Shown: positions 796-56,026 of the stretch, piece after piece
Numbering within the stretch: position 1 is the first letter of the stretch
Layout: each line of letters starts with the position of its first letter
IMG/VR virus record: IMGVR_UViG_3300035180_000678
Origin: a virus
Taxonomy: Duplodnaviria; Heunggongvirae; Uroviricota; Caudoviricetes
DNA: 64,000 nt
Strand: one strand, 5' to 3'
Position numbers and translations under genes: made by a program
The notes under the pieces: generated by a model
Databases searched by the model: none
Told to the model about the DNA's origin: nothing
What the model saw: only the letters and a program-made list of their open reading frames with translations

Positions 796-1356
796 TTGAA
801 AAAAATTGTGAAGTCGATTTTGGTGTTTTGCGTTTTTGCCTTTTTCCTAGCCAAAATCGAAGACCCAGCACCACCCCCTCCACCTCCACCCGATCCCTGT
901 CTAGTCTCTGCTGTCTACCGAGAGGCCCGAGGGGAGAGCATCGAAGGCCAGAGAGCCGTGCTCGATGTCATCTACAACAGGGCAGATGCCACAGGTAAGA
1001 CAGCTTGTCAAGTGATCGCCGAGCCTCACCAGTTCCAGTGGGTGCATTGGAAGAAGAGCGGACTTGTGGAGCTTGACGAGGACAAGGTTGCGTTGTACAA
1101 TGCAGCCTCCCAACATCCCCGCGTTCTCAACAATGAGAAGTTCTTCTTCAGCATCAAGCTGAAGCCGACGTGGGCCAAACACATGCTCTGCCACAAGATA
1201 GGCGGGCACAGCTTCTGCAAGGAGAAACCATCATCCTCACCATCGAAGGCAAGCACGGCGTCAAGGCCACCATCCTCAAGGACAGCCTCGCACGCAACGG
1301 CTCCCGGTTCATCAGCTATGAACTGGAGTACCCCCGCATCATCCTCGCTGAACTGA
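796..1356 (+). CDS. secreted SleB-like cell-wall hydrolase (Hydrolase_2 family) with N-terminal signal/TM and a proline run
   Basis: N-terminal hydrophobic segment then PPPPPPPP linker. Motifs AVYREARGE...VIYNR...HQFQW...IGGHSFC match the SleB / cell wall hydrolase domain. The 3' ~40 codons overlap the next gene and may be spurious read-through. Confidence 0.55.
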   Translation: MKKIVKSILVFCVFAFFLAKIEDPAPPPPPPPDPCLVSAVYREARGESIEGQRAVLDVIYNRADATGKTACQVIAEPHQFQWVHWKKSGLVELDEDKVALYNAASQHPRVLNNEKFFFSIKLKPTWAKHMLCHKIGGHSFCKEKPSSSPSKASTASRPPSSRTASHATAPGSSAMNWSTPASSSLN

Positions 1357-2249
1357 ACACCCATCGGGCCGACTCCAAGAGCAGTGCATCGAGCCGGGCG
1401 ATTCCGTTCGCCAAGATGGTGCAGCAACTCACCGGCCGCCCGATCCGTTTCGGGGAAGCCAACAAGGGAATGCAGGACAAGGGCGAGGATTTCGATGGCC
1501 TCGTGGACATCGGTCCGGCTCTCGGCTTCGCTCATGCGTTCCCCGTGACCCCGGAACAAGCGTGGGAACTCGCCAAGAACAGCGCCATGCTCTACTCCAA
1601 GGGCTTCGCCGACGCGGGCTTCCACAAACAGGTGTACAACCGCCTGACGGAAGCCTTCCAGATGATGAAGACCATCTTCTCGGGCACCGAACTGGAGAAC
1701 TTCTTCTGGCTCCGCCACCACGAGGCAGCGGACCCGTCGCTGGCTGAACTGGCTCGCGTGATGTACGAGGCTCGCGAGCAATCAATGCCGCAGGTTCTCA
1801 ACCCGGGGGAGTGGCATCTGCCCTACGTGGAGAACGTCCGTGTCAATGGCGGGATGCGGTACTTCATCACCGAGGAAGCCGAAGACGGCACCTCCTACCC
1901 CGTCTGGCTCGACGTGGAGACTGCACGCAAGGTGAGCGCCGCTCGTTCTGCTGCCGTGTCCTTCCGCAACGTGGACTACGGTGTCGCGAAATGCGAGGAA
2001 GTGTTCCAACGTCTCGTCGGCGATGACCGCAAGCACGCTTCGGCGTTCGAGCACCAAGGGACTCCGATGCAAGCTCGACAGAGCGGCAATGAGGACGACA
2101 ACGAGCCCACCATCAACGAGCCGATGTTCCCCCGTTCGTGGGAGCCCGGCGTGTCGCACATGGATCGCGACGGCAACTTCTGGTCTGGCAACCTGAAAGG
2201 GTTTGTTCAATTCCGCAAGCTGATCCCCGGCGAAAACTACACTGGCTGA
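1170..2249 (+). CDS. ThyX-like flavin-dependent thymidylate synthase homolog (divergent motif)
   Basis: 359 aa. Contains THR-ADSKSSA-S-S-R, i.e. the ThyX signature RHR-x7-S-x-R with the first R replaced by T, preceded by an F..EL..P..hh.EL context as in ThyX. Longer than canonical ThyX. Confidence 0.5.
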   Translation: MGQTHALPQDRRAQLLQGETIILTIEGKHGVKATILKDSLARNGSRFISYELEYPRIILAELNTHRADSKSSASSRAIPFAKMVQQLTGRPIRFGEANKGMQDKGEDFDGLVDIGPALGFAHAFPVTPEQAWELAKNSAMLYSKGFADAGFHKQVYNRLTEAFQMMKTIFSGTELENFFWLRHHEAADPSLAELARVMYEAREQSMPQVLNPGEWHLPYVENVRVNGGMRYFITEEAEDGTSYPVWLDVETARKVSAARSAAVSFRNVDYGVAKCEEVFQRLVGDDRKHASAFEHQGTPMQARQSGNEDDNEPTINEPMFPRSWEPGVSHMDRDGNFWSGNLKGFVQFRKLIPGENYTG

Positions 2250-2652: not shown

Positions 2653-2840
2653 TGGACAACTACGCGATCATCGAGTCACCCAACCTCGCGGGGTTACAGA
2701 AGCAAGTGGACTTGATGATTGACGAAGGCTTCCTGCCTCAAGGTGGTGTCGGCGTCAACAACTACTACGAAGGCACGGTGCGATTCGTTCAAGCCATGCT
2801 GCGTCACCCTCTCATCCCTAAGGAGAACCAACCCTCATGA
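2652..2840 (+). CDS. hypothetical protein
   Basis: ATGA start/stop overlap with the upstream gene. 62 aa. Confidence 0.45.
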   Translation: MDNYAIIESPNLAGLQKQVDLMIDEGFLPQGGVGVNNYYEGTVRFVQAMLRHPLIPKENQPS

Positions 2841-3673
2841 ATCCGATCCGATCTTTCGTCAACTCCCGCATCCTCAACATCCTGTGCATCGCCCTGATGG
2901 CGGGCGTGCTGGCCTGCGCCTCGGGCTGTGCCCGCATCGCCACGGGTGAAGTCGGCCTCCGCGTGGACGTGAACAACCAGACGCTGCCCGGCGAACTGAT
3001 GCCCGGCTCGTGGAACCAGACCCTCGTCGGTCACGTGCTCGAATTCCCGGTGCGTGACGTTCCCCTCGTCATCAACAACGCCCACCCGATCACCAAGGAC
3101 AACACCGCGCTCGACGAGTTCGACCTGACGGCTGCCTACTCGATCAACCAAGCGTGCGTCTTCGACCTCTGGACCAAAAAGTCCCGCACGTTCCACGGCT
3201 CTTCCGAGTCGGGTGAATGGCTCCTGATGCAGAGCTTCGTGCAGAACACGCTGAACTCCGCCGCCTACAAGGCCGTCCGCTCCTACGATGCCCTCGTGGT
3301 CAACGACAATCGTGACCAGATCGGCGCACAGGTCCACGAACTCGCCAAGGAAGTCTTCAAGGAGAACGGTTTGGAGACGTGCCTGAGCATCAACAGTGTG
3401 CAGGTCAAGACGGCCAAGCCTGCCGAGATGATCCTTCAGAGCGCCCGCCTCGTCGTCACCAAGGCCAACGAACTGAAGGCCAAGGAAGCTGAAGTCGCCA
3501 TCGCCGAAGCCGAAGCACATCGCCTGTCCGCCCTGTCGCAGAACACCGGCAACATGGCCCTGATGCAATTGGAGAACCAGAAGCTCATCGCCCAAGCCAT
3601 CCACGAGGGCAAGGTGCAGACCATCGTCCTGCCGATGGACTTCAAGGGCATGGTCAACTTGGGCGGCAAGTGA
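2837..3673 (+). CDS. SPFH/band-7 (stomatin/prohibitin-like) domain lipoprotein
   Basis: Signal peptide with lipobox LACASGC. The central region and Ala/Glu-rich coiled-coil tail (AKEAEVAIAEAEAHRL) are typical of SPFH/HflC-like proteins. Confidence 0.6.
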   Translation: MNPIRSFVNSRILNILCIALMAGVLACASGCARIATGEVGLRVDVNNQTLPGELMPGSWNQTLVGHVLEFPVRDVPLVINNAHPITKDNTALDEFDLTAAYSINQACVFDLWTKKSRTFHGSSESGEWLLMQSFVQNTLNSAAYKAVRSYDALVVNDNRDQIGAQVHELAKEVFKENGLETCLSINSVQVKTAKPAEMILQSARLVVTKANELKAKEAEVAIAEAEAHRLSALSQNTGNMALMQLENQKLIAQAIHEGKVQTIVLPMDFKGMVNLGGK

Positions 3674-7180: not shown

Positions 7181-8101
7181 ATGCTTATGATTGGCTCGAC
7201 TGCCATTGCTCACCATCTCGACCGAGAGCCTGCTGACCTTGACTTGGTCGGCACCTACGACGAGGCAGTTGCCTTTCGCAAAGTGTTCGGTGCCGTCTCC
7301 TTCTACCCCATCAACGACGGGAACAGCATCTTCATGCGCCGGGCATCGGGCCTCATCTGCGAAGTCGAAATCGCGTGGCCCGATTCCCGTGCCGAGCGTC
7401 TGCTGGCGTTCGTGAAGGAACACCCGGAGTCCGTCTACTCGTCAGGCTGGGCTGGAGTTCCGATGGACGCTGCCCGGAAGGATTTGGTGTACACCCTCAA
7501 GATGTCGCACCGCTTCCTGAAGAACAGCCCGCATTTCTGGAAGACGATGGCGGACATTCGTCTGCTGCGTGAGATGAACTGCACCATCCCGGAAGAGTGG
7601 ATGGAGTTCTATCGTCAGCGTGAGGTGGACACCTACACGTACAAGCACCCGAACCTCTCCGTGGGCAAGGGTGAGTTCTTCGACGCAACGATGACGGGCG
7701 TGATCCAGAAGTACGACCACGACACTGTGCATGAAGCCGTGGCGGTCTTCGACCGTCCCGCCTACACCTACTACCTTGACGGGCCGGTCAAGTGCAGCCG
7801 GGAACTGTTCGAGGCGCAGCCTGAAGCCATCCGCCTTGCTGGGGTGGTGGAAGAGGCAATGGTGCTGGCTCTCGAACGATCCCTCATCCCGTTTCCCGGT
7901 GGCAAGACGCCCGAAGAGGCGTTCCGTTTCGCTCTGATGAAGGTCTGCACCTCGATCACGAGCGGTTGGTTCCGGGACTACGCGTGGGAAAAGCACGACG
8001 CAGCCCTCAACTTTTTCCTTGAAAGTCAGCGTCTCCAGTGCTACACTGAACGCTTCAACGCCGCTCTGGAGGCTGGCGTGGTCAAGCTCAAGCAAGACTG
8101 A
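7181..8101 (+). CDS. nucleotidyltransferase-fold (Pol-beta superfamily) protein, function unknown
   Basis: N-terminal IGSTAIAHHLDREPADLDLVG matches the minimal NTase hG[GS]...D-h-D-h signature. 306 aa with a large C-terminal domain. Confidence 0.45.
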   Translation: MLMIGSTAIAHHLDREPADLDLVGTYDEAVAFRKVFGAVSFYPINDGNSIFMRRASGLICEVEIAWPDSRAERLLAFVKEHPESVYSSGWAGVPMDAARKDLVYTLKMSHRFLKNSPHFWKTMADIRLLREMNCTIPEEWMEFYRQREVDTYTYKHPNLSVGKGEFFDATMTGVIQKYDHDTVHEAVAVFDRPAYTYYLDGPVKCSRELFEAQPEAIRLAGVVEEAMVLALERSLIPFPGGKTPEEAFRFALMKVCTSITSGWFRDYAWEKHDAALNFFLESQRLQCYTERFNAALEAGVVKLKQD

Positions 8102-8117
8102 AAGACTCCCAACCTTA

Positions 8118-8564
8118 ATGAAAGGAACCCACCCCTTGCGCGATTTCTTCTTCGGCTCCCTGACGCGTGTCATCATCACCGTCCTGCTGTCCATCCTGCT
8201 GTTCGCTCTCGTCCTCAACGCGTGCTCGCCCGCCCCGCAATACGCCCCGCCCGTGGCGCAAGTGCAGCAAGGCCCGGTCGTCGCGGGTCAAGCCCCCGTG
8301 ATCGTCCAACAAGCCCCGCAACACGACGGCTTCATGTCGGGCTTCATGATGGGCCACCTCTTCAGCGGCGGCTATGGCTACCGTGCCCCGGTCGTCGTCC
8401 AACACACGATCATCGCTCCCACCGTGGTCCGTCCGACCTACGTGGCCCCGCGTGCCATCGTGCCGAGCTACACGCCCCGCCCCTCTGCGTGGACTAGCAC
8501 CAACAGCCGTGGCATCTCGACCACGACCAGCCGCTCGTCCATCTCGGTCGGTCGTCGCCGCTGA
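8118..8564 (+). CDS. Pro/Gly/Val-rich lipoprotein or membrane protein
   Basis: ATG at 8118. Hydrophobic N-terminus ending in lipobox-like LNAC, then a low-complexity Q/P/V-rich region. Confidence 0.45.
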   Translation: MKGTHPLRDFFFGSLTRVIITVLLSILLFALVLNACSPAPQYAPPVAQVQQGPVVAGQAPVIVQQAPQHDGFMSGFMMGHLFSGGYGYRAPVVVQHTIIAPTVVRPTYVAPRAIVPSYTPRPSAWTSTNSRGISTTTSRSSISVGRRR

Positions 8565-8566
8565 CG

Positions 8567-8737
8567 CATGAAGGCCCACCCTCACGCATTCACGGTGAAG
8601 CTGGGCCACCGTAAGGCTCCCTTGCCGTGGCTCTACTGCGCCAAGTGCGGGCTTCTCAGACTGAACAACGAAGCGTCCCGTAGGGCAGCCAATAGAGCTT
8701 GCCCCGGGACCGAAGAGGAAAGGAAACAAACCCCATG
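8567..8737 (+). CDS. small Cys-containing protein (56 aa, possible Zn ribbon)
   Basis: MKAHPHAFTVKLGHRKAPLPWLYCAKCGLLRLNN...ACPG. ATGA overlap with the next gene start. Below the ORF-track cutoff. Confidence 0.25.
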
Positions 8738-9160
8738 AGCAAAGCATACAACCCCCTGAGCCGCGACAACTTGCGTGTGCTGAACCCCAAGGTCTTCGAG
8801 CGGGCGGCGGAGATGATCCTGAAGGGCGAGGCCGAAATGTCGTGCTGCGCCCTCTCCTACGCCAGCGAAGAACTGAACGGCACCTACTGGTGTCCGGAGC
8901 GGGATGTCTACCGTGAAGTGATGGGTCCGAAGACCCTGAAGGAAGAGGTGGCCCACCCGTTTTGGGACAAGCTCGTCACGTCCAAGCGCAAGCCCTACCG
9001 TGCCAACGCCCTCCTGTTCGTGGCGGCGGCGATCCGTGATGCCAAGAGCCGTCGCGGCAAGAAGGCCAAGAAGTCCCTCGGGGCAACCCACGGCCCTGCG
9101 CGTGAGTTCCGCCACGTGCCGGACCCGTCGAGCCAATGGCCCTTCCCGTTGGAGTCGTGA
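8735..9160 (+). CDS. hypothetical protein
   Basis: Internal ATG with a GAAAGGAAA SD. 141 aa. Terminator immediately downstream. Confidence 0.45.
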   Translation: MSKAYNPLSRDNLRVLNPKVFERAAEMILKGEAEMSCCALSYASEELNGTYWCPERDVYREVMGPKTLKEEVAHPFWDKLVTSKRKPYRANALLFVAAAIRDAKSRRGKKAKKSLGATHGPAREFRHVPDPSSQWPFPLES

Positions 9161-9172
9161 TTCTCACGGATG

Positions 9173-9206
9173 AGAAGCCCCACCTAGCCGTGGGGCTTTT
9201 CTCTTG
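9173..9206 (+). terminator. rho-independent terminator
   Basis: AAGCCCCAC-ctagcc-GTGGGGCTT hairpin followed by TTTCTCTT. Confidence 0.65.
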
Positions 9207-9268
9207 TGTGGACCTGAAGTCCTAGGCATAATGAACACATCAACGAACGCACCCCACAGGAGAATCCA

Positions 9269-10906
9269 ATGAGCCGCACCCCCACCCCGCAACAACAAGC
9301 CGTCTGCGACTACGTTGCCAATCTCGTGAAGGCTGGTGCCAAGGGGATGCTGAAGGTGGAAGCCTGTGCGGGCTCTGGCAAGACCTCGACGCTGGTCGTC
9401 ACGGCAGAAGCCTCCCCCGTCCCTTCGATCTACCTTGCCTTCAACAAGGTGACTGCCACCGAGGCGGCGGAAAAGTTCCCGAAGCACGTGGAGTGCCGCA
9501 CGACGCACTCGCTGGCATACGCTGCCTACGGTGCGAAGCTCAATGACAAGCTCTCCCGTCCGCGTGGCAAGTACGTCAACGTGGCTGGCACGGGCTCGGA
9601 GATTGCCCGCTTCTACGGCATCCGCAATCTGGTGATCGATGAAGACCTCATCATCCCGGCGAACTTCCTCGGTCTGCTGGTCAAGGAAACCGTCGCGCTG
9701 TTCGAGCAGTCGGCTGACCTCGCCATCAAGATGAAGCACGTCCCCACGGCAGACCTCTTCGAGAAGTGCAAAGGCAACTCTTCGGCCGTCAACGTTGCCA
9801 AGAAGATCATCCTCGCCAACGCGGAGAGCCTGTGGGAAGACCGCATCAACCTGCGCTCGGAAGTGCTCGCCACGCACGACACCTACCTCAAGTTGTACCA
9901 GATGTCGAAGCCGAAGCTGGCGGGCAAGAGCATCGTCTACGTGGACGAGTTCCAAGACACGACCCCCTGCGTGCTGGACATCGTCATGCAACAGACCGAA
10001 CACGCCATCGTCGTCATGGTGGGCGATGCCCGTCAGGCCATTTATGGCTGGCGCGGTGCTGTCAACGCGATGCAGATGGTCAACGCTGACGCGCTGTACC
10101 TGACGAAGAGCTTCCGCTACGGTCAGTCCATCGCCGACCTCGCCACTGCGGTTCTGGAACGTGACATGGTGATCGATGGCAACGAGAAGATTCAATCGGT
10201 CGTGGCACCCTACAACCTCGTGGACCGCTCTGCCCCCTACACCCGCCTCTTCCGCACCAACACGGCCCTGCTGACGGCTGCTGTGGAGGAAATCCAGAAG
10301 GGCACGGAAGTGTCGCTGGAAATCGACGTGCGGGATTTCGTGAAGCTCCTGCAATCGGCTGTCGCTCTCAACCGAGGCGACATGAAGAACGTCAAGCACG
10401 ATTCCCTGCTGGCCTACTCCAACTGGGGTGAACTGGTGGAAGAGTCGAAGCACTCGGCGGAACTGGGCCGCATCGTCAAGGTGGTCAAGGAGGGCAAGGC
10501 CGACCAGTGGATTCAAGTGCTGGAGCGTCACCAGAACTCGAAGAACCCCCACATCACCTTCACCACGGCTCACAAGTCGAAGGGCCGGGAGTTCGAGCAA
10601 GTCATCGTGGAGAACGACTTCAAGAGCGGCTATGACGAGAACGGTGACTGGGTGGGCCTGCCCGTCGAAGAGCAGAACCTGCTGTACGTGGCCCTGACCC
10701 GAGCCATCCTGAAGCTGGAGTACAACGCCACCACGGAAGAGTACCTGTCACAGTCTTCTGCGCACGACCACATCGACCACGACTGCGCGGAAGCGGACCC
10801 GGAAAGCGACGGCTCGCTGCCGGACATCCAGAGCCGCATGGACACCTTTGTGAAGGGGCAACTGGCCCCGCTGATCCGCGACGTGCAAGACGCGCTCGCA
10901 GCGTAA
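9269..10906 (+). CDS. UvrD/Rep-family SF1 DNA helicase
   Basis: Walker A ACAGSGKTSTL, motif II VYVDEFQD, motif III YGWRGA, motifs V/VI TAHKSKGREF and LLYVALTRA. Confidence 0.8.
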   Translation: MSRTPTPQQQAVCDYVANLVKAGAKGMLKVEACAGSGKTSTLVVTAEASPVPSIYLAFNKVTATEAAEKFPKHVECRTTHSLAYAAYGAKLNDKLSRPRGKYVNVAGTGSEIARFYGIRNLVIDEDLIIPANFLGLLVKETVALFEQSADLAIKMKHVPTADLFEKCKGNSSAVNVAKKIILANAESLWEDRINLRSEVLATHDTYLKLYQMSKPKLAGKSIVYVDEFQDTTPCVLDIVMQQTEHAIVVMVGDARQAIYGWRGAVNAMQMVNADALYLTKSFRYGQSIADLATAVLERDMVIDGNEKIQSVVAPYNLVDRSAPYTRLFRTNTALLTAAVEEIQKGTEVSLEIDVRDFVKLLQSAVALNRGDMKNVKHDSLLAYSNWGELVEESKHSAELGRIVKVVKEGKADQWIQVLERHQNSKNPHITFTTAHKSKGREFEQVIVENDFKSGYDENGDWVGLPVEEQNLLYVALTRAILKLEYNATTEEYLSQSSAHDHIDHDCAEADPESDGSLPDIQSRMDTFVKGQLAPLIRDVQDALAA

Positions 10907-10928
10907 AGAACCACAGCCTTTGGCTCCC

Positions 10929-10966
10929 CGTCTTCGCGGGGGGCCTTTTCTTTTTGTGGGCTGCGT
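10929..10966 (+). terminator. rho-independent terminator
   Basis: CCCCGTCTTCGCGGGG hairpin followed by CCTTTTCTTTTTG. Confidence 0.6.
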
Positions 10967-11006
10967 GGTAGAATCCCTCGAACCCACCTCACACTGGAGA
11001 ACAATG

Positions 11007-11432
11007 GACATCAATCAAATTGAACTTGCCAAGCATATCGCTGCCAAGTTCCACGCGGGCCAAAAGTACGGGGACTACGCGTACACCGAACACGTCTCAC
11101 AAGTGGCTATCAAGGTCAAGCGAGCCTTCCCGGGTGACGAACGACTTGAAGTCATCGCATGGCTTCATGACATCCTCGAAGACACCGTTTGCACCTACGA
11201 GATGCTGCTGGCCCTGTTCGGGGATGAAGTCGCGGATGCTGTGAAGGCGATGACCAAGCGAGAGGACGAGAGCCGTGACGACTACATCTTCCTTCGCGTC
11301 AAGCCGCATCCGCTGGCCCGCAAGGTCAAGCTGTGCGATGCCTTCTGCAACCTGCATGAAAGCCTGATGCGAAACGATGAGAGGCGTATCAAGCGGTACG
11401 GTGAAACTCTCGGGAAGCTGGCAATCGCATGA
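11007..11432 (+). CDS. HD-domain phosphohydrolase, SpoT/MESH1-like ((p)ppGpp hydrolase-like)
   Basis: HxxxxxxY..HD pattern: AAKFHAGQKYGDYAYTEHVSQVA...IAWLHDILEDT is typical of the RelA/SpoT hydrolase HD domain. 141 aa with a GGAGAACA SD. Confidence 0.6.
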   Translation, partial: DINQIELAKHIAAKFHAGQKYGDYAYTEHVSQVAIKVKRAFPGDERLEVIAWLHDILEDTVCTYEMLLALFGDEVADAVKAMTKREDESRDDYIFLRVKPHPLARKVKLCDAFCNLHESLMRNDERRIKRYGETLGKLAIA

Positions 11433-11644
11433 CCACGTTCTTCGATCCTCTCTCCCAAGAGAAGCGAGAGTTCGTCTTCGGTCGCAGAGCCCCGCCCGAC
11501 AACACGAAGTACGAGCCTCTGTGGTGCGAACGCCACAACTACGGGCACAACTGGGCTGACTCGCTGGACGACTTCTGCAAGTGCAGCTATTGCGGCATCA
11601 GCGTGGTGGCCTCCCGAGCCAAGAGAAACCTCAACAAGAACTAG
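11429..11644 (+). CDS. hypothetical protein with a C-terminal Cys cluster
   Basis: 71 aa. ATGA overlap with the HD gene. Contains CERHNYGHNW...CKCSYCG. Confidence 0.4.
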   Translation: MTTFFDPLSQEKREFVFGRRAPPDNTKYEPLWCERHNYGHNWADSLDDFCKCSYCGISVVASRAKRNLNKN

Positions 11645-11653
11645 AAAGGACGC

Positions 11654-14086
11654 ATGAAGCGATTCGTAACCGACATCGAGTCGAACAACCTGCTGAACGA
11701 GCAGAGCATCGACTACCTGAGCGCACCGTTCAAGCTGAAGCCCACTTTCGTCATCCACTGTGCCGTCATCATCGACGTGGACACTGGCGCGACGTGGCGG
11801 TTCGTCGGCGAAGAAATTCGTGGCGCGTACATAGATAAGCTGAAGGAAGCAGATGTCATCATCGGCCACAACATCCTCGACTTCGATTTGCTGGCTATCA
11901 AGCTCTACTGTGACATCGAGTACACGGTGGGGGATCGTTCGTTCGGAGAACGCGACACCTTCTGTGGAAAACCTGTGGATATCTTTGACACCCTCGTGGC
12001 GTCGAAGTGTCTGAACCCGGACCGCTTCGGTGGACATTCGCTGGACGAATGGGGCATCCGCCTCGGCGAGCACAAGATCGACTGGCGGGCGAAGGCTCTT
12101 GAACTGGGCTTGATCCACTACTCCGATCCAAAGGGTGCCGAGTTCCGTGTCTACCATCCGGAGATGCTGGTCTACAACGAGCAGGACTGCAAGACGAACG
12201 TCAAGCTCTACCTGCATCTGCTGGACGAGATGGAGGGCTGGGACTGGGCTTCCGCGATGAACCTCGAACACCTCGTGCGAGACATCGTGACGCGGCAATC
12301 CCACCGTGGCTTCGCGTTCAACGAGACGCTGGCCCGGGAGAACATCAAGTTCCTCGACGAGAAGATGGAAGAAATCCGTCTCATCGTCGAGCCGCTGCTG
12401 CCTCCGAAGCCGATGGGCATTACGAAGGCGAAGGCATACTGTCCCCCGAAGATTCAGTTCAAGAAGAACGGGGAGATGTCTTCGCACATGCAGAAGTTCA
12501 TCGAGAAGCACAACGGGAAGTTCAACGAGGAAGAGCGTACCGCTGAGTTCTTCGGGACTGTCTGGAAGCTTCCGATGGACCCGGAGGTGCCCATCCTGAC
12601 CACGGAGCCTGCCACCGTGAAGGACACGACGCACATCAAGGGCTGGCTGGTGGAGCTTGGCTGGGTTCCCTCTCAGTACAAAGAACGTGACCTCACGTGC
12701 GACTCGAAGAAGAACAAGCTGTCTCCCGACAAGTTCGCGGATGCAGTGGAACGCTACGTCGAGCAAACGCTGGCGTCTCCCTTCTGCAAGGACCGTTGTG
12801 ACAACCTCGGTGTGAGGCCCGACAAGCTGCGCAACAAACTGATGCTGCACAAGCCCGGGCGTCCGTTGAAGGTCTACACCAACCCGACGTTCACCGTGGG
12901 GCAGGAAAAGGAAATGGACCCGGCTCTGCTGGAACTGTCTGACAAGTTCCCGCACGCCAAGCTCATCTCTGAGTACCTGACCTACTCCCACCGCCGCAAC
13001 TCGATCCTCGGGGGCATGGTGGACCCTGATGAGATGGATGAAGATGATGAATTTGCGGGCAAGGGCTATCTGGCATCGGATCGTATTGCTGTGGATGGAC
13101 GCATCCCGACTCCTGCTGACTCGTGCGGAGCGGGAACTTCTCGCTTCAAGCATCGGTTGGTTGCTAACATCCCTCGCATCACGTCTCTCTTCGGGGAGAA
13201 CATGCGGGGCATGTTTGGCTCGGACGTTAAGGGCGGCTTCTACCAAATGGGCTACGATTTCGCCTCGCTTGAGGCGATGATCGAGTCGCACTACTGCTGG
13301 CGGTATGACGACGAAGACCACAGCTATTGCCTGTCGCTGACGATGGAGAAGCCGAACGACGTTCACACGAAGACGGCGAAGCTCATCGAGACGTTGGTGT
13401 CTCAGGCGATTGGCAAGGCATTCCCGTTCGCTCGGCAGAGTGCGAAGCCTGTGAAGTACGCGTGCGCCTACGGTGCCATGCCGAAGCGAGTGGCGAAGAC
13501 TGTGGGCGTCTCCGAGGATATCGGTGCGCTGATCCACGGGGCCTACTGGCAAGCGGCGAAGCCTCTGGCTGCGTTGGGCGAGAAGCTGAAGGAATACTGG
13601 GAGACGACGGGCGGTAAGAAGTACATCCTCGGGCTGGACGGTCGCAAGATTCCCACCCGCAGTGCTTCGGCCCTCATCAACTCTCTGTTCCAATCGGCGG
13701 GCGTCATCTGCGCCAAGCGGGCGATGGTGCTGCACGAACGGAAGATGCGAGAGGCTGGGCTGACTGTTGACTTCTTCCGGGATGACTGGAAGAATGCTGC
13801 ATTCGTCCAACAGATGATCGCCTACCACGACGAAGCGCAGTTGGAAGTCCACAAGTCGCGCATCAAGTGGAAGACGTTCAAGGAAGAGGCTGATGCCAAG
13901 GCGTTCCGCAAGGAAAACCCTACGTGGTCTGAAGTCGGTCACTCCGATAAGGGCTACTACGTCGGCTACACTCTCGCGGGTGAACTGATTCAAGAGGCAG
14001 TCCGTGAGACGAGTGCTTTCTACAAACTCAACGTCACGTTGTCGGCCGACTACATTCTCGGGCGCAATTGGGCCGAATGCCATTAA
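11654..14086 (+). CDS. family A DNA polymerase (T7 gp5-like) with 3'-5' exonuclease domain
   Basis: Exo motif DIESNNL / GHNILDFD. Pol A motif A DFASLEAM, motif B RQSAKPVKYACAYGA, motif C HDE. 810 aa. Confidence 0.85.
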   Translation: MKRFVTDIESNNLLNEQSIDYLSAPFKLKPTFVIHCAVIIDVDTGATWRFVGEEIRGAYIDKLKEADVIIGHNILDFDLLAIKLYCDIEYTVGDRSFGERDTFCGKPVDIFDTLVASKCLNPDRFGGHSLDEWGIRLGEHKIDWRAKALELGLIHYSDPKGAEFRVYHPEMLVYNEQDCKTNVKLYLHLLDEMEGWDWASAMNLEHLVRDIVTRQSHRGFAFNETLARENIKFLDEKMEEIRLIVEPLLPPKPMGITKAKAYCPPKIQFKKNGEMSSHMQKFIEKHNGKFNEEERTAEFFGTVWKLPMDPEVPILTTEPATVKDTTHIKGWLVELGWVPSQYKERDLTCDSKKNKLSPDKFADAVERYVEQTLASPFCKDRCDNLGVRPDKLRNKLMLHKPGRPLKVYTNPTFTVGQEKEMDPALLELSDKFPHAKLISEYLTYSHRRNSILGGMVDPDEMDEDDEFAGKGYLASDRIAVDGRIPTPADSCGAGTSRFKHRLVANIPRITSLFGENMRGMFGSDVKGGFYQMGYDFASLEAMIESHYCWRYDDEDHSYCLSLTMEKPNDVHTKTAKLIETLVSQAIGKAFPFARQSAKPVKYACAYGAMPKRVAKTVGVSEDIGALIHGAYWQAAKPLAALGEKLKEYWETTGGKKYILGLDGRKIPTRSASALINSLFQSAGVICAKRAMVLHERKMREAGLTVDFFRDDWKNAAFVQQMIAYHDEAQLEVHKSRIKWKTFKEEADAKAFRKENPTWSEVGHSDKGYYVGYTLAGELIQEAVRETSAFYKLNVTLSADYILGRNWAECH

Positions 14087-14099
14087 CACGAAAGGAATT

Positions 14100-14312
14100 A
14101 TGACTTCTCAACCGCACACCATCGACTCCCTTATCACCGCATTGGAGGCCCTGAAGACCAAGGAAGCCGGTTCGACGCCTGTCATGACACGAGAAACCTA
14201 CCTCGCAGGGAGCCTTAGCACGGCTAACGATACGCTGGGCATCGAAACGATCTACATGGCAAACCCGGATGGCACGGACTCCAGTACCGTGCTTTGCATC
14301 GTCCTCTCGTAA
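14100..14312 (+). CDS. hypothetical protein
   Basis: Internal ATG with a GAAAGGAA SD. 70 aa. Confidence 0.4.
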   Translation: MTSQPHTIDSLITALEALKTKEAGSTPVMTRETYLAGSLSTANDTLGIETIYMANPDGTDSSTVLCIVLS

Positions 14313-14315
14313 GTC

Positions 14316-14477
14316 ATGAACTTCTTCCAAGGACTCGGGCTCGTTGCCCTGCTGGTGTGGAACAACTCCCTCGTGTCGAAGGGCAGCCTGTGGTGCCTTC
14401 TGGTCATGCTGCTGATCGTCCTGTACGTAAGGTCGATGGTCAACGATGCTGCCAAGACCAAGTACAGCGACTGGTAA
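14316..14477 (+). CDS. small membrane protein (53 aa)
   Basis: MNFFQGLGLVALLVWNN...WCLLVMLLIVLY is hydrophobic. Below the ORF-track cutoff. Confidence 0.25.
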   Translation: MNFFQGLGLVALLVWNNSLVSKGSLWCLLVMLLIVLYVRSMVNDAAKTKYSDW

Positions 14478-14818
14478 TGGCAAAGAACCGCATGGGCCGT
14501 CCCACGTTGGAGCAACAACGTGTTGCCCAGTGGGCCAAAGACAAGGTGGTGAGGCTGTTGTACGCCACCGTGAAAGTCTTGATCGACGGAGGCAGCCATG
14601 TTACAGTGGCTGCTTCCTATGTGATGAAGTTCCCTGAAGACTTCCCCCGAGCGTGGAACGTCAAGAAGGAAGGCGACATCAACATCTACCGCTTCCGAGC
14701 AAACAAAGTTCTTGACTGGCTTCGAGCACATGGTTACACTGACCTCGACACGGAGATAATTCGTGCAGCCAAGATCAAATTCACAATGAAAGAAAAGGAG
14801 CTTGATGATTCTCTGTGA
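14477..14818 (+). CDS. hypothetical protein
   Basis: ATG at 14477 overlaps the upstream stop (TAATG). 113 aa. Confidence 0.4.
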   Translation: MAKNRMGRPTLEQQRVAQWAKDKVVRLLYATVKVLIDGGSHVTVAASYVMKFPEDFPRAWNVKKEGDINIYRFRANKVLDWLRAHGYTDLDTEIIRAAKIKFTMKEKELDDSL

Positions 14819-15107
14819 CCCCGAGGCGCTGCTGCGCCACACCATCATCGGCATCAACGTCGTGGGTGATGAACTCATCGAAATCTTCACCGAAGACGGC
14901 AACCCGGACGAACCCCGGTACATCGTCCAGCCCGTCGAAGGCATCATCGACAGCATCGAAGGCGACCTCGCCGACCTGTGCGAGTGCAAGCCGCTCCATT
15001 CCGAGGTGTTCTTCACCGAAGGGCTGCCGGTCTTCCGGATGTACTCCTTCTACGGGGAAGTGGACATCATCTTCTCCGCCCTCGACGTGGCGATCTTCCA
15101 ATGCTGA
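14802..15107 (+). CDS. hypothetical acidic protein
   Basis: 101-aa ORF with a AAGGAG SD. Confidence 0.4.
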   Translation: MMILCDPEALLRHTIIGINVVGDELIEIFTEDGNPDEPRYIVQPVEGIIDSIEGDLADLCECKPLHSEVFFTEGLPVFRMYSFYGEVDIIFSALDVAIFQC

Positions 15108-15895
15108 AGGTTCAATCTGGTGGCCTCGACCTGACCGTCAAGCAATGGCGCTTTCCTTGCGGTGAAGCTGGCTTCAAGATCGAATCCGCTCCCAGCCTCA
15201 TCGAGTTCCAAGACGTGTGGATTCATCTGCACTGGGAGGGCAACGATGACCTGATGGCGCTGGCGCAAGCTGTCGATGCCGTGCGTCATGCGGGTGCCAA
15301 GCGCATCTTCCTCCGGATGCCGTACTTCCCGTACAGTCGTCAGGATCGCCGATGCAACCCGGGCGAAGGCCATGCGTTGAAGATGGTGGCTCAGTTCATC
15401 AACAGCCTTGACTTCGAGTTCGTGGAAACGTATGATGCCCACAGCACCGTGCTCGAAGCCGTGGTGGATCGACTGAACGTGATGCCGCAAGCTGAATGCG
15501 CCATCCGTCTTCCGATCCATGACATCCTGATCGCTCCGGATGCTGGCGCTGCGAAGAAGGTCTTCAAGCACGGCCAAGTCGTGAATGGCATGGCTGAAGC
15601 TCTGGTGGCGGACAAGGTTCGAGGCGAGCGCGGCGTCATCCTCTCCACGCGCATCTACGATGCCTCGAAGGTCAAGGGCAAGCGGGTCTGCGTGGTGGAC
15701 GACCTCTGTGACGGAGGTGCTACGTTCATCGAACTGGCGAAGGTGCTGTGGGCAAACGACCCGGCCGAACTGAACCTGTACGTCACACACGGGTTCTTCA
15801 CGAAGGGTGCTGATGTTCTGCTGCCCTACTACGACAACATCTACGTGGCAAATCTCATGAATGAGAACGCCCGAAACCAAGTCAAGGAGATTTGA
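15101..15895 (+). CDS. ribose-phosphate pyrophosphokinase (Prs)-like enzyme; candidate ADPR-pyrophosphate synthetase (Adps) of a NARP1-type module
   Basis: PYFPYSRQDR matches the Prs catalytic loop PYFGYARQDR. VVDDLCDGGATF matches the PRPP/ribose-phosphate binding loop. Start taken at the internal ATG (15101) after the upstream stop. Confidence 0.75.
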   Translation: MLKVQSGGLDLTVKQWRFPCGEAGFKIESAPSLIEFQDVWIHLHWEGNDDLMALAQAVDAVRHAGAKRIFLRMPYFPYSRQDRRCNPGEGHALKMVAQFINSLDFEFVETYDAHSTVLEAVVDRLNVMPQAECAIRLPIHDILIAPDAGAAKKVFKHGQVVNGMAEALVADKVRGERGVILSTRIYDASKVKGKRVCVVDDLCDGGATFIELAKVLWANDPAELNLYVTHGFFTKGADVLLPYYDNIYVANLMNENARNQVKEI

Positions 15896-15899
15896 CCAC

Positions 15900-17468
15900 A
15901 TGAAGAGCTTCCCCCTCCACGCCGCCGACTTCTACAAACTGTCCCACCGCAAGTTCATGCGCGAGGGCACGACGTTCCTCTACGCCAACCTGACCCCGCG
16001 TGCGGGCAAGTACATGGCGTGGGCGGATGACAACCAGCAAGTCGTCGTCCTCGGCCTCCAGCACTTCCTGAAGGACTTCCTGATCGGCGAGTTCAACGAA
16101 GCGTTCTTCAACCGCCCCAAGGCGGAAGTCATCGCCAAGTTCAAACGCCGCTGTGACACGTCCCTCGGGCCGGACTCCATCCCGACCGATCACATCGAGG
16201 CCCTGCACGACCTCGGCTACCTGCCGCTGTGCATCAAGGCCCTGCCCGAAGGCTCACTGGTGAACTTCAAGGTGCCGGTCCTGACGGTGTTCAACACGCA
16301 CCCGGACTTCGCGTGGCTGGTGACATACATCGAGAGCGTCCTGTCCGATGAACTGTGGCCCGTGATGACCAGCGCCACTACGGCTTTCCAGTTCCTCAAG
16401 GTGTGCAACGAGTATGCCGACAAGACCGTGGGCCATCGTCTGCACGTGCCGTTCCAGTGCCACGACTTCTCCATGCGTGGCATGATGGGTCGTCAAGCTG
16501 CTGCCCTGTCGGGCATCGGCCACCTTGCCTCGTTCACAGGCACGGACACCATCCAAGCCATCGATCTGATCGAGGACTACTACAACGTGGACGCGGAGAC
16601 GTTCTTCATCGCGGGCTCCGTCCCGGCTTCGGAGCACAGCGTGACCTCGCTGGGCATCGCAGTGGATGGCGAGATGGAGACGCTGCGCCGCTGGATTTCG
16701 GTGGACTACCCGGAAGGCATCGTGTCCATCGTGTCGGACACCATCGACTACTGGAAGGTGCTGACCGAGTACCTGCCCGCGCTGGAGCCGGAAATCCGTG
16801 CTCGCAAGAAGAACGCTCTCGGCTTCGCCAAGGTGGTCGTCCGTCCGGACTCGGGTGACCCCGTGCGGATCATCTGTGGCTACGACGAGTCGGAACTGAA
16901 CCGTCGCCCGGGCCTGATCGCGCAAGGTCTGGTCATGGTGCGGGAAGACAACAGCCTCATCACGCTCGAAGAGGCGGACGGTTCCATCGTGACGCTCTAC
17001 CGCAAGTTCGGTGGCACGGTGAACGCCAAGGGCTACAAGGAACTCGACCCCTGCATCGGCCTGATCTATGGTGACTCGATCACCCTCGACCGTGCCAAGG
17101 AAATCTTCGCCCGCCTCGAACGCAAGGGCTTCGCGTCCTCGAACGTCGTGTTCGGCGTCGGCTCCTACACCTACCAGCACGTCACCCGTGACACGCTGGG
17201 CATCGCTGTGAAGGCCACCTACGCTGTGGTGGATGGCGAAGGCAAGGAACTGTTCAAAGACCCGAAGACGGACTCCGGTGTCAAGAAGAGTGCCCGTGGC
17301 CTGTTGGTCGTCGGCAAGAAGGGCGACACGGACGAGTACGTGCTGGTCGATCAAGTCGGTGTCGAAACCGAGAAGTCGGGCTTCCTCCGTGAAGTCTTCC
17401 GCGACAGCACGATCCTCGTGGAAGAGGACTGGGGCACGATCCGCAACCGCTTGCAATCGCAGGCGTAA
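15900..17468 (+). CDS. nicotinamide phosphoribosyltransferase (NAMPT/NadV)-like enzyme; candidate Namat
   Basis: Full-length match of the characteristic NAMPT segments (HDFSMRGM, GTDT, SVPASEHS, RPDSGDP, GLIYGDS, FGVGS). Lies immediately downstream of the Prs-like gene. Confidence 0.85.
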   Translation: MKSFPLHAADFYKLSHRKFMREGTTFLYANLTPRAGKYMAWADDNQQVVVLGLQHFLKDFLIGEFNEAFFNRPKAEVIAKFKRRCDTSLGPDSIPTDHIEALHDLGYLPLCIKALPEGSLVNFKVPVLTVFNTHPDFAWLVTYIESVLSDELWPVMTSATTAFQFLKVCNEYADKTVGHRLHVPFQCHDFSMRGMMGRQAAALSGIGHLASFTGTDTIQAIDLIEDYYNVDAETFFIAGSVPASEHSVTSLGIAVDGEMETLRRWISVDYPEGIVSIVSDTIDYWKVLTEYLPALEPEIRARKKNALGFAKVVVRPDSGDPVRIICGYDESELNRRPGLIAQGLVMVREDNSLITLEEADGSIVTLYRKFGGTVNAKGYKELDPCIGLIYGDSITLDRAKEIFARLERKGFASSNVVFGVGSYTYQHVTRDTLGIAVKATYAVVDGEGKELFKDPKTDSGVKKSARGLLVVGKKGDTDEYVLVDQVGVETEKSGFLREVFRDSTILVEEDWGTIRNRLQSQA

Positions 17469-17477
17469 GGAGGTAGA

Positions 17478-18212
17478 ATGAGCAACGTCATCATGACCAG
17501 CACGGGAAGCTACTTCCCGTTCGAGAATCCGGAGTCGCACAACTTCGACATCAAGGAGATTGCTTGGGCACTCTCCAACCTCTGCCGATACACGGGGCAC
17601 GTGAGCAAGTTCTACAGCGTGGCCCAGCACTCGGTGTGGGTGAGCCGCATGGTGCCTCCGGAACTGGCTCTGGCTGCCCTGATGCACGATGCTTCGGAAG
17701 CCTACCTCGGGGACGTGGCGAGCCCGCTCAAGCGTCTCCTGCCCGACTACAAGCTCATCGAAGAGCGTGTCGAGCGTGCCATCTGCGCCCACTTCGGTCT
17801 GCCGTTCCCGCTGGACGCCCGGATCAAGGAAGCGGACCTCCGGATGCTGATGACCGAACGTCGCAGCCTGCTGCCCGCTGACGAGTTGAACGTGGGCCAC
17901 TGGCCCCTGTACAAGCCCTACGACTTCAACGTGGAGCCCCTTCAACCCGTGGACGCCCACGCCCTGTTCCTCGAACGCTATGAGGAACTGAAGAACGTGG
18001 CACCTCCGCCCGAAGTGGAAGTTCCGACCGGCCGCGTGCTTCGAGACAGGTTTGAAGATGCGGAGCCGGGAGACATCTTCTTCCTCAATGGCAGCCGGTA
18101 CGTTGCTGAAGACTACAAAGAGGGCGGATGCTCGAACTGTGCTGGTTACGGAAAGGGTCCGTGTAACTTCTTGCCCGGTTGCTCGGGCATCATCTGGCTC
18201 AAAAAGAATTGA
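17478..18212 (+). CDS. HD-domain 5'-deoxynucleotidase (YfbR-like)
   Basis: LCRYTGH...SVAQHS...AALMHDASEAYLGD HD-domain metal ligands, as in YfbR-type nucleotidases. 244 aa. Confidence 0.65.
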   Translation: MSNVIMTSTGSYFPFENPESHNFDIKEIAWALSNLCRYTGHVSKFYSVAQHSVWVSRMVPPELALAALMHDASEAYLGDVASPLKRLLPDYKLIEERVERAICAHFGLPFPLDARIKEADLRMLMTERRSLLPADELNVGHWPLYKPYDFNVEPLQPVDAHALFLERYEELKNVAPPPEVEVPTGRVLRDRFEDAEPGDIFFLNGSRYVAEDYKEGGCSNCAGYGKGPCNFLPGCSGIIWLKKN

Positions 18213-18239
18213 CAAGAAAGGACACATCATCGACAATCA

Positions 18240-18849
18240 AGTGCTGGAGGGTCCGCAAGTCGCGGCTCTCCCGGGTGGCTGTAGCCTGCCTCCCAACGTC
18301 TTCCCTCCCATCGCCTACCGTGGCCCCCAATTGATCGGGCTGACGGGTAAGGCACGCAGCGGCAAGGACACCGTTGCAGGGATGTTGAAGGACGCCTTCC
18401 AAGTGGAAACTCTCGCCTTCGCCCGGCCTCTCAAGGAAGGGCTCAAGACGATGCTGAACCTCACGGACGAACACGTCCACGGCAGTCTCAAGGAGACGGT
18501 CATCGAGGACTTCGGCAAGAGCCCTCGCCAGATGCTCCAAACCCTCGGCACCGATTGGGGGCGGGAACTGGTGACCAACGACATCTGGCTCATCGTGGCC
18601 CAACGGCAGATCGCCGCGTGGCTGGACGAAGACAAGAGCGTCGTCATCACGGACGTTCGTTTCGACAACGAAGCGGACCTGATCCGGAAACTGGGCGGCT
18701 CCGTCTGGCACGTGCGTCGAAATGACGCCCAAGCCGTCAACGCTCATGCAAGCGAAGCTGGTGTCCTGTTCCACAGCGATACCGACAAGATCATTGACAA
18801 CAATGGAACTCTGGCCGAACTGTTCGATACGGTTTGCGATGAGTTCTGA
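18240..18849 (+). CDS. deoxynucleoside monophosphate kinase (phage dNMP kinase-like)
   Basis: P-loop GLTGKARSGKDT, typical of T4 gp1-like dNMP kinases, in the 18052 ORF frame. The true start is uncertain; GTG at ~18240 is the first candidate after the upstream stop. Confidence 0.55.
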
Positions 18850-18868
18850 ACCAAGGAGAAGAGAACAC

Positions 18869-19087
18869 ATGAGCAAGAAAGTCGTCCAATACAGCGCGAT
18901 TCATTCGCCGATCCATGTCGGCCTCAGCGTCACGCTGACGCCCGTCGATCACCCGGACACCTACAACGTGACGAACGGGATGCCCGCTTACACATCGGAT
19001 GTCGTCTCCTATGACGAAACCACCGGGTTCATCGAGACGAAGTACACACTGTACGTCCCGGAAGGTGCAGTGGGGGTTGACGCCTGA
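18869..19087 (+). CDS. hypothetical protein
   Basis: AAGGAGAAGAGAA SD before ATG at 18869. 72 aa. Confidence 0.4.
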   Translation: MSKKVVQYSAIHSPIHVGLSVTLTPVDHPDTYNVTNGMPAYTSDVVSYDETTGFIETKYTLYVPEGAVGVDA

Positions 19088-49852: not shown

Positions 49853-50866
49853 TTAGTTGGACGAGAAGAACTTGACCACGAGGTTCGGACGCAGGAGAGC
49901 GTTCACGAAGTTCGACTCGGATTCGAGGTCGATGCGCGTGCCGCTGAGGTTCTGAGTCTCGAACAGGTACACTTGTTCGCCGAGCGTGTTCACCAGACCG
50001 AAACGGTTGGCAGGCGAGAAGTACGTCTTGAACGTCGTGCTCGTGCCCAGCGGAACCATGTACGCTTCACCCGTGGGGATGAGACGCTGACCCGCGTAGG
50101 TGTCGCGCATTTCGATGAACTTCGTGCCGCCGAACTCGAAAGTGCGGTGCATCGAGAAGCCACCGAGGCGATCACGCAGCGGTTGCTGGTTGCCAGCCAT
50201 GTAATACTGGTAGGCAGTCTTCACAGCGGCGTGCGAGATGAGCTTCGCGAAGAATTCCGGCGAAGTCAGCACGACGGTGCCAGTCACGGTTTCACCAAAC
50301 GCGTAGTCTTGGATGCGGGCCGTGCCCTGTTCGATTGCGCCGATCACGTCGGTCGTCGAGGTGCCGAGCGTGAAGTCCACGGTCAGGCGGGTCACGCCGA
50401 ATTCAGCATTCCAGTCTTGCGACACGGTGCCGTTCGGAGCGTACACAGTACCTGCGACGATGGCCTTGGCGCGGGCGTATTCCAGCGTCCAAGCGTGGTT
50501 CTGGCGAATGCGCTCCATCTTGCGAGTGCGGACCAGTTCCAGCGTTTCCACGTTCATCGAGCCATAAGCACGCTTGCCTTGGAGGTCTTGCGGGCTGATG
50601 TAGTCGTCATACGGGAAGTGAGGCACAGCGAAGGTGTGCAGCTTGCGGCTGTAGTCCTTGCCCACGTTGCCACGGTCACCGCGCACACGGTCGAGCAGAA
50701 GCGCGCCGTCCTTGTCGATTTCCTCGAACACGACCACGTGTTCAGCAACAGGTTCTTCAGCGAAGAGGCCCAGTTGACCGATCGTGCCCCATTGGTTCGG
50801 GATGAACGAAACTTCCTGAGTCCAGTCTTGGACTTCAAAGCCGTTCGAGAAACTACGGATAATCAT
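49853..50866 (-). CDS. major capsid protein (lambda gpE-like family)
   Basis: 337 aa immediately downstream of the decoration and scaffold genes. Confidence 0.7.
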   Translation of the reverse strand: MIIRSFSNGFEVQDWTQEVSFIPNQWGTIGQLGLFAEEPVAEHVVVFEEIDKDGALLLDRVRGDRGNVGKDYSRKLHTFAVPHFPYDDYISPQDLQGKRAYGSMNVETLELVRTRKMERIRQNHAWTLEYARAKAIVAGTVYAPNGTVSQDWNAEFGVTRLTVDFTLGTSTTDVIGAIEQGTARIQDYAFGETVTGTVVLTSPEFFAKLISHAAVKTAYQYYMAGNQQPLRDRLGGFSMHRTFEFGGTKFIEMRDTYAGQRLIPTGEAYMVPLGTSTTFKTYFSPANRFGLVNTLGEQVYLFETQNLSGTRIDLESESNFVNALLRPNLVVKFFSSN

Positions 50867-55953: not shown

Positions 55954-56026
55954 TGGGGTGACCGTGGGAATCGAACCCGTCTGCCGAGGTCACAACTCGG
56001 AGTGCTCGCCATTACACTAGGGCCAC
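55954..56026 (-). tRNA. tRNA-His(GUG)-like (weak T stem)
   Basis: Anticodon arm ccgag-TTGTGAC-ctcgg (GUG). Discriminator C with encoded CCA. 6-bp acceptor. T loop TTCGATT but only 3 GC pairs plus two A.C mismatches in the T stem. Confidence 0.35.

Follow-up and report, generated by a model that had tools for sequence, protein, structure and literature searches.

NAD+ reconstitution pathway 1 (NARP1) was described in 2024 (bioRxiv 10.1101/2024.02.11.579819), where its deletion from phage Bas63 provides the published in vivo validation, and its two enzymes, Adps and Namat, were later solved structurally (PMC12774641, PMC13586617). For Bas63, restoration of NAD+ has been shown in a host devoid of nadR and pncC. 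Namat of Bacillus phage SPbetaL1 has been crystallised with nicotinamide (NAM) or NAD+ (Protein Data Bank (PDB) entries 9W5X and 9W5W; PMC12774641), and structures of Adps of Vibrio phage ICP1 exist in the apo form, with ADP-ribose (ADPR)/ATP, and with ADPR pyrophosphate (ADPR-PP)/AMP (PMC13586617). Here, we analyse a window of 64,000 nt, a stretch of DNA from an uncultured tailed phage (IMG/VR record IMGVR_UViG_3300035180_000678) and the reference for all coordinates unless a contig is named, in which a Prs-like gene is directly followed by a Nampt-like gene. We conclude, with a probability of roughly 0.88, that this pair is a NARP1 module carried by a phage with a genome of about 87 kb. It is a divergent further member of a system already known, and common among phages, and reveals no new mechanism.

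The second gene of the pair codes for a protein of 522 aa that matches PHROG 448 with an E value of 2.6e-186. In a phmmer search against the PDB it hits the two SPbetaL1 Namat entries 9W5X and 9W5W at E=4e-133 and entry 9KE8 at 1e-115, the best true Nampt appearing at 2e-48 and the remainder being worse. It is 49.5% identical to SPbetaL1 Namat, 46.5% to the Namat of phage Bas62, and 29% to three NARP2-type Nampts, one of which adjoins an annotated bifunctional nicotinamide mononucleotide (NMN) adenylyltransferase (NMNAT). A neighbour-joining tree of 31 sequences splits these NARP2 Nampts from the window protein and all Adps-linked sequences in 200/200 bootstraps, and places the window protein as sister to those of two Adps-linked viral contigs.

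We then mapped onto this protein the 20 NAD+-contact residues of the SPbetaL1 Namat structure plus the clamp position Tyr394, and found 17 of these 21 positions to be identical, the four changes being R40 to K37, A362 to S393, F392 to Y423 and Y396 to H427. The Nampt-type core is kept, with H246, R315, D10, Y12, F190, R193 and D216 corresponding to the catalytic His, R306, D13'/Y15', F189, R192 and D215 of SPbetaL1. The helix of the selectivity clamp, whose consensus in Namat is GS-X-phi-X-phi-X-phi-TRD (PMC12774641), has the expected length in the window protein, with an aromatic residue at position 3 (Y423) and another at position 5 (Y425), and T, Q and V at the phi positions. NARP2-type Nampts read GGGLLQ(E/K/Q)(V/L)(T/N/D)RD at this place (n=3), and their motif GGGLLQxVTRD is absent from the window protein. 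The third residue of the clamp loop can be Arg, Lys or Tyr, stacking being done by the following residue in the case of Lys or Tyr (PMC12774641); the window loop, TPRAGK37-Y38, is of this Lys-then-aromatic type, as is that of Bas63 (TPRSDK-W). These comparisons support the assignment of the 522-aa protein as a putative Namat, and not as a NadV/Nampt.

The first gene codes for a protein of 264 aa containing the Pfam domains Pribosyltran_N (E=4e-13) and Pribosyltran (E=5e-6), which matches PHROG 619 at E=1e-71 and Prs structures of the PDB at E=1e-17. By blastp, it scores 155-118 bits against Namat-linked Adps of phages of Gram-negative hosts, including Bas62 and the Bas63 cluster (comparison set drawn from Table S1 of Osterman et al.), and 78 bits against E. 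coli Prs. Because BLAST alone does not bring it nearer to SPbetaL1 Adps than to Prs, its placement in the Adps clade rests on phylogeny and motifs. In a neighbour-joining tree, it nests among Namat-linked Adps, bracketed by the validated Adps of ICP1 and SPbetaL1 and by a representative of the Bas63 cluster, with canonical Prs standing apart in 200/200 bootstraps, in keeping with the distinct phage Adps clade of Osterman et al. (Fig. 3C); the outgroup consisted of E. coli Prs and of eight further gammaproteobacterial Prs found with it (hits of at least 80% identity, almost all gammaproteobacterial).

Curated profiles agree with this placement. On the two NCBIfam models for Prs, TIGR01251 (cut-off 113 bits) and NF002320 (cut-off 297 bits), the window protein reaches 108.6 and 94.1 bits, below both cut-offs, as does SPbetaL1 Adps with 106 and 74 bits; the Adps of Bas62 (118 and 98 bits) and of the Bas63 cluster (138 and 100 bits) pass the first model and miss the second. 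The values for E. coli Prs are 422.7 and 532.6 bits. The protein is also shorter than E. coli Prs (264 vs 315 aa), its alignment ending about 30 residues past the THG motif as in other Adps, and it lacks both the N-terminal extension of Prs and the C-terminal alpha11-alpha12 regulatory and filament region.

The ICP1 Adps structures reveal which residues bind the acceptor, identify Lys185 as catalytic and show a PP loop, C215-S220, that has been remodelled (PMC13586617). ICP1 F18, R87, H121, D161, K185, D212 and D213 correspond to F18, R80, H114, D147, K172, D200 and D201 of the window protein, the PP loop CDGAAS to CDGGAT (C203-T208), and F221 to F209, whereas E. coli Prs has IDTGGT at the PP loop. 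The lysine K172 aligns with the catalytic beta-hairpin lysine of SPbetaL1 (K162) and ICP1 (K185) and is invariant in 117/117 close homologues, all of metagenomic origin, with whose motifs those of the window protein agree. The loop PYFPYSRQDR, quoted for this gene in a first-pass annotation of the window, corresponds to residues 74-83 in the translation. The data thus support a putative Adps rather than a housekeeping Prs.

The first-pass annotation had favoured an Adps plus Namat architecture over NadV plus Prs, and had proposed comparing both proteins, by profile and structure, with the Adps/Namat and Prs/NadV families and searching for NMNAT or NatV beyond the window; the clades, the clamp motif, the PP loop, the sub-threshold Prs scores and the lack of NMNAT all fall on the Adps/Namat side. 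The classical salvage route, NARP2-like or acting in auxiliary metabolism, would require a true Prs making phosphoribosyl pyrophosphate (PRPP), a NadV/Nampt making NMN from it, and an NMNAT to finish, supplied either by the host as NadD or NadR or by the phage from elsewhere in its genome. Both proteins do fall within the Prs and Nampt superfamilies, and the NCBIfam model NF006629 even names the second a nicotinate phosphoribosyltransferase, but this model is passed equally by Namat and by a NARP2 Nampt and was therefore rejected as a discriminator. Moreover, Namat keeps about half of the PRPP-to-NMN activity of human Nampt in vitro (PMC12774641), and about 11 kb of the genome lie outside the inspected sequence. 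On the other side stand the low identity to NARP2 Nampts against the roughly 50% to a validated Namat, with the fully supported split between the two; the presence of the Namat clamp in place of the GGGLLQ motif; and a first protein that falls below all curated Prs cut-offs and is devoid of the C-terminal regulatory helices. In addition, Nmnat is also encoded by 94% of the phages that have a Nampt of the KVP40 (NARP2) type, and no phage was found to have both pathways (Osterman et al., bioRxiv 10.1101/2024.02.11.579819); no NMNAT was found in the 76.6 kb that we inspected. We therefore consider classical salvage very improbable.

This inspected sequence represents 88% of a presumed phage genome of about 87.5 kb, the longest contig bearing an identical Adps being 87,459 bp. 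It comprises the window and 12.6 kb of flanks added by look-ups of the terminal genes: 3.0 kb on the upstream side, with genes for dUTPase and DNA ligase, and 9.6 kb on the downstream side, on contig L088, with genes for RNA ligase, a Macro-domain protein and RtcB. A scan of metagenome contigs for the remaining 11 kb or so, using a protein encoded at the end of L088, found nothing. A Pfam census of the about 80 ORFs of the window and of the recorded hits in the flanks revealed no CTP_transf_like, NUDIX, NadR or PnuC domain, and tblastn searches of window and flanks with NatV of Stenotrophomonas phage Ps15 and with E. coli NadD gave nothing better than E=2. The earlier observation that the window is free of NMNAT is thus confirmed, and extends to the flanks. 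Over the same 88% of the genome we could rule out NARP2, for which the clade and the motif are wrong and NMNAT is missing, as well as NARP3, which consists of a PnuC-like transporter and a NadR-like enzyme (PMC13464706), neither domain being found.

Several observations weigh against a NARP1 assignment. The NMNAT search covered 76.6 of about 87.5 kb, and a distant NMNAT may lie in the rest; the Namat enzymes themselves retain some activity from PRPP to NMN in vitro (PMC12774641). By blastp, the first protein scores 70 bits against SPbetaL1 Adps and 78 bits against E. coli Prs, which puts it no nearer to the former than to the latter, and the tree that separates the two families is a neighbour-joining and not a maximum-likelihood one, with an outgroup of gammaproteobacterial class I Prs only. 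In ICP1 Adps, F18' and F92 touch the adenine of ADPR and F223 sits in the lid over the adenine of ATP (PMC13586617); F92 is replaced by C85 and F223 by E211 in the window protein, and the same two substitutions are found in the Adps of Bas62 and of most close relatives, so that these contacts are not family-wide. Finally, position 7 of the Namat clamp helix, which contacts adenine (Y396 in SPbetaL1) and is 'most often' Tyr or Phe (PMC12774641), is His427 here, other Adps-linked homologues having L, M or C.

This histidine, together with a slightly divergent beta-hairpin in Adps (KVRGERGVI vs K-x-R-D-x-x-T-G-x-I), might also indicate that the genes are decayed, non-functional remnants of NARP1. 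However, both reading frames are intact and of full length, all catalytic residues are kept, the motifs match those of the 117 close homologues, ribosome-binding site signals are strong, and identical copies occur in several samples, which leaves decay extremely improbable.

If the pair is indeed a functional NARP1 module, we infer the enzymatic activities and counter-defence role of its products to be as follows. A NADase effector of the host (type I Thoeris, DSR1/2, SIR2-HerA, SEFIR or similar) would split NAD+ into ADPR and nicotinamide. Adps would then move the beta-gamma pyrophosphate of ATP to the 1'' hydroxyl of ADPR, yielding ADPR-PP and AMP, with Lys172 as the putative catalytic residue and the CDGGAT loop predicted to hold the donor ATP. 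The Nampt-type core of Namat (His246, Arg315, Asp10/Tyr12', Phe190 and Asp216) would join nicotinamide to ADPR-PP, while its clamp (Tyr423, His427 and Lys37/Tyr38') would grip the adenine. NAD+ and pyrophosphate would be released directly, with neither an NMN intermediate nor an NMNAT, and the NAD+ pool emptied by NADase effectors may in this way be restored by the two enzymes.

The two genes (Table 1) were recovered with the same coordinates, 15101-17468, as in the first-pass annotation by independent gene calls on matching metagenome contigs, which yield identical products of 264 and 522 aa, and their homology to PHROG 619 and PHROG 448 is far above chance. JGI and Logan assemblies contain a Prs-like protein that is 100% identical and likewise exactly 264 aa long. 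Longer versions starting with GTG are possible for both ORFs (at 14978 for adps and 15861 for namat), but the shorter starts are preferred because the independent contig gene calls agree on them. Two ORFs on the opposite strand, 15050-15901 (-; 283 aa) and 16254-18236 (-; 660 aa), run antisense to adps, namat and the HD phosphohydrolase gene that follows, and have neither homology nor gene-call support; since both lines of evidence favour the + strand, we regard them as shadow ORFs of a genome with 58% GC.

Translational coupling, which had also been proposed for the pair, applies only loosely: the two genes do not overlap but lie 4 nt (CCAC) apart, with the ribosome-binding site of namat inside adps. 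The ATG of adps overlaps by 7 nt the stop of a preceding 100-aa ORF, and an HD phosphohydrolase gene begins 9 nt past the namat stop with AAGGAGG ahead of it, followed by a deoxynucleoside monophosphate (dNMP) kinase gene. No terminator-like site was found on the + strand between the pair and its neighbours, the sole one detected on this strand (15136-15150) being a weak 5-pair match inside adps. Given the spacing, the position of the ribosome-binding site and the co-directional run of genes, adps and namat are probably expressed together.

Table 1. Positions in the window of the adps-namat pair and of its predicted functional elements.
Feature	Position	Strand	Details
adps, Prs-like (putative ADP-ribose pyrophosphokinase)	15101..15895	+	264 aa; ATG 15101, TGA 15893-15895
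Adps RQDR motif (R80-R83)	15338..15349	+	R80 = ICP1 Arg87, which contacts the ADPR adenine; translation check
Adps putative catalytic lysine K172	15614..15616	+	= SPbetaL1 K162, ICP1 K185, E. coli Prs K194; alignment
Adps D200-D201, PP loop C203-T208 and F209 (DDLCDGGATF)	15698..15727	+	predicted donor-ATP site; Adps type, not Prs-type DDMIDTGGTL
Shine-Dalgarno sequence AAGGAG of namat	15884..15889	+	within the final adps codons, 10 nt before the namat ATG; read from sequence
namat, Nampt-like (putative nicotinamide ADP-ribose transferase)	15900..17468	+	522 aa; ATG 15900, TAA 17466-17468
Namat selectivity-clamp loop K37-Y38	16008..16013	+	K37 aligns with SPbetaL1 R40; Y38 expected to stack on adenine, as in Bas63
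Namat putative catalytic histidine H246	16635..16637	+	alignment mapping; translation check
Namat R315	16842..16844	+	= SPbetaL1 R306, essential for activity; alignment mapping, translation check
Namat selectivity-clamp helix motif GSYTYQHVTRD (G421-D431)	17160..17192	+	motif alignment, translation check

To see how the pair is conserved, we surveyed the neighbourhoods of the nearest Namat relatives in 80 viral contigs. An Adps gene lies beside Namat in 71 of them, and several others are truncated at this point; an NMNAT within 10 kb of Namat is found in none (0/80). The flanking genes are far more variable: the HD and dNMP kinase neighbours are common to only the closest of the 80 contigs (L001), a 62%-identical relative (L096) has an unrelated 86-aa ORF in place of the HD gene, and the surroundings of the pair are entirely different in a relative with 53% identity. 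The pair is also present in cultured Klebsiella and Pseudomonas phages. Its retention as a unit in spite of varying flanks supports a self-contained two-gene module. Among deposited phages, we counted 1,531 records with an Adps-like gene and 2,027 with a Namat/Nampt-like gene, in agreement with the published NARP1 prevalence of 4.3% of sequenced phages (Osterman et al., bioRxiv 10.1101/2024.02.11.579819). A Namat homologue within 10 genes of Adps is here the immediate next gene.

The pair lies in the first of two large blocks of the phage genome. From position 1 to about 31 kb, the + strand carries replication and nucleotide-metabolism genes, including a primase-helicase, a UvrD-like helicase, PolA, a class II ribonucleotide reductase and an HNH endonuclease. 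From about 32 to 56 kb, the - strand carries the structural and lysis genes, including those for the tape measure, major capsid protein E, an S49 protease, a Mu-type portal, the large terminase and a holin, and PhoH and ClpP-like genes are found at the end of the window. The major capsid protein (49853-50866, -) shares 52% identity with its counterpart in Limnohabitans phage DC31, 50% with the one in Curvibacter phage P26059A, and 47-49% with those of PAK_P1/KPP10-like Pseudomonas myoviruses. These capsid relatives hint at a possible freshwater betaproteobacterial host, and at a distant kinship to a group of myoviruses of about 88 kb that commonly carry NARP1. At the DNA level, a megablast of positions 14000-19000 against 50,697 phage records returned a single 213-bp match and no close cultured relative, and the comparison was therefore done at the protein level.

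A few other features of the two blocks can be mentioned. Early in the + strand block, the 359-aa product of 1170-2249 (+) contains a stretch resembling ThyX, RHR...S...SxR (LNTHRADSKSSASSRAIP), and has no Pfam match at E<=0.01; a Thy1 (PF02511) gene occupies a comparable region in the contig of one relative. It is followed among the early genes by a protein of the SPFH/Band 7 family with an N-terminal hydrophobic segment (2837-3673, +), and a batch Pfam scan gave an NfeD1b_N match in one other ORF of the window. Between the primase-helicase and the UvrD-like helicase lies a gene for a conserved DUF7277/DUF7275 protein (7181-8101, +; E=1e-61), which is also present in L096. The border of the structural block, right after the terminase gene, holds 14 arrayed tRNA genes (55955-57840, -) for His, Pro, Ser, Trp, Tyr, Asn, Lys, Asp, Glu, Gln, Ile, Met, Leu and Thr, beyond which are two more genes on the - strand (58070-60738).

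The downstream flank encodes a Macro-domain protein that touches on the question of NARP1 accessories. At positions 7849-11522 (+) of L088, about 1.9-5.3 kb past the window end, are genes for an RNA ligase (409 aa), the Macro protein (150 aa, PF01661; L088 9236-9688, about 3 kb beyond the window end) and RtcB (424 aa). Macro genes occur near Namat in 22 of the 80 viral contigs, and the Macro protein of this phage is homologous to those encoded there; its identity to a 'phosphatase' encoded four genes past Namat in Pseudomonas phage Boevelstad is 31% (E=1e-19), and it weakly matches a structure of an ADPR-1''-phosphate phosphatase (6LFU, E=1e-4). It could take part in RNA repair, act as an ADPR-1''-phosphatase like Adpp, or do both.

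The HD phosphohydrolase next to namat (17478-18212, +) matches PHROG 318, 'dNMP phosphatase', at E=1.6e-72 and the PDB entry 2GZ4 (Atu1052) at 2e-12, and has a C-terminal extension of about 70 residues with a Cys-rich end (CSNCAGYGKGPCNFLPGC). We rejected it as a general NARP1 accessory, as it is found at only 1 of the 80 loci and a close relative has another ORF in its place. Upstream of adps, two small ORFs on the + strand (14477-14818, 113 aa, and 14805-15107, 100 aa) were considered as RyDEP or Macro accessories and discarded, having no Pfam or NCBIfam match; nor does any RyR domain appear among the Pfam hits of window and flanks.

It may be imagined that one of these phosphatases, Macro or HD, feeds modified ADPR, such as the ADPR-1''-phosphate made by aRES, into NARP1, an extension that would add to the NARP1 assignment and not replace it. 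The published precedent of NARP1-AP, the presence of a Macro gene in the same phage with the homologies just described, and the position of the HD gene, 9 nt past namat with a strong ribosome-binding site, speak for it. However, NARP1-AP is defined by a Macro-domain Adpp within two genes of NARP1, and the neighbours here are small ORFs without Pfam hits, the HD phosphohydrolase and the dNMP kinase; the Macro gene is about 50 kb away (some 35 kb in the opposite direction, should the genome be circular), and its RNA ligase and RtcB neighbours suggest RNA repair. As to the HD protein, it belongs to the 'dNMP phosphatase' family, its gene adjoins that of the dNMP kinase, and its association with NARP1 is confined to a single one of the 80 loci. 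Such an extended pathway is thus unlikely. A non-canonical NARP1 in a broader sense, with the distal Macro acting in trans as Adpp, the HD protein as a new accessory, or His427 shifting the donor specificity of Namat, is distinctly unlikely. If true, a trans-acting Macro Adpp would confer resistance to aRES-type defences based on ADPR-1''-phosphate, and an HD accessory would turn modified ADPR into a substrate of Adps.

As a NARP1 module, the pair adds a divergent environmental member to the family, its Adps being at most 41% and its Namat at most 52% identical to proteins of any deposited phage genome, and its carriage suggests that the hosts of this phage use NAD+-depleting immunity. Its natural clamp variants, the Lys-Tyr loop and the His at position 7, could help define the residues that set specificity for ADPR-PP. 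There is also a lesson for annotation: 'Prs + NadV' pairs lacking NMNAT are better labelled Adps/Namat.

Among known systems, NARP2 combines a KVP40-type Nampt with the bifunctional NMNAT/Nudix protein NatV. It shares with this locus the Nampt superfamily fold, the nicotinamide chemistry and the restoration of NAD+, but its Nampts, 29% identical, form a separate clade with the GGGLLQ clamp, it has no Prs-like partner, and it needs an NMNAT, none being found here. Two others are NARP1-AP, in which Adps, a Macro-domain Adpp and Namat are combined (Vibrio phage Gary), and RyDEP-NARP1; both contain the same core pair, and the phage studied here also encodes a Macro protein, but from a gene neither inside nor beside the operon, with no RyR-domain protein detected near NARP1.

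The Adps of ICP1 shares with that of the window the residues F18, R87, H121, D161, K185, D212, D213 and F221 (ICP1 numbering), the Cys-Asp-Gly start of the PP loop and the loss of the alpha11-alpha12 region of Prs, and differs at the positions occupied by C85 (F92), E211 (F223) and CDGGAT (CDGAAS). The NARP1 of Bas63 (JohannRWettstein, Felix O1-like) and Bas62 (JohannJBalmer) belongs to phages of another host and another lineage, with unrelated flanking genes and, in Bas62, a longer Namat of 577 aa. Nevertheless, at 34-38% identity for Adps and 46.5% for Namat, these modules share with ours the Lys-then-aromatic clamp loop, the CDGG-x-T PP loop and the Cys at the position of ICP1 F92.

The NARP1 of SPbetaL1 (Adps gp190, Namat gp191) differs in its Adps, which aligns only in part, at about 34% identity and 70 bits, in having R40 where the window clamp loop has K37-Y38, in Tyr instead of His at clamp position 7, and in lacking some 22 residues that are inserted in the window Namat in the region 340-385. 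However, it has the same gene order, adps then namat, a Namat of about 50% identity in which 17 of the 21 mapped positions (20 NAD+ contacts plus Tyr394) are the same, the same catalytic His and Arg and GS-X-phi-X-phi-X-phi-TRD clamp, and an Adps lysine, K162, equivalent to K172.

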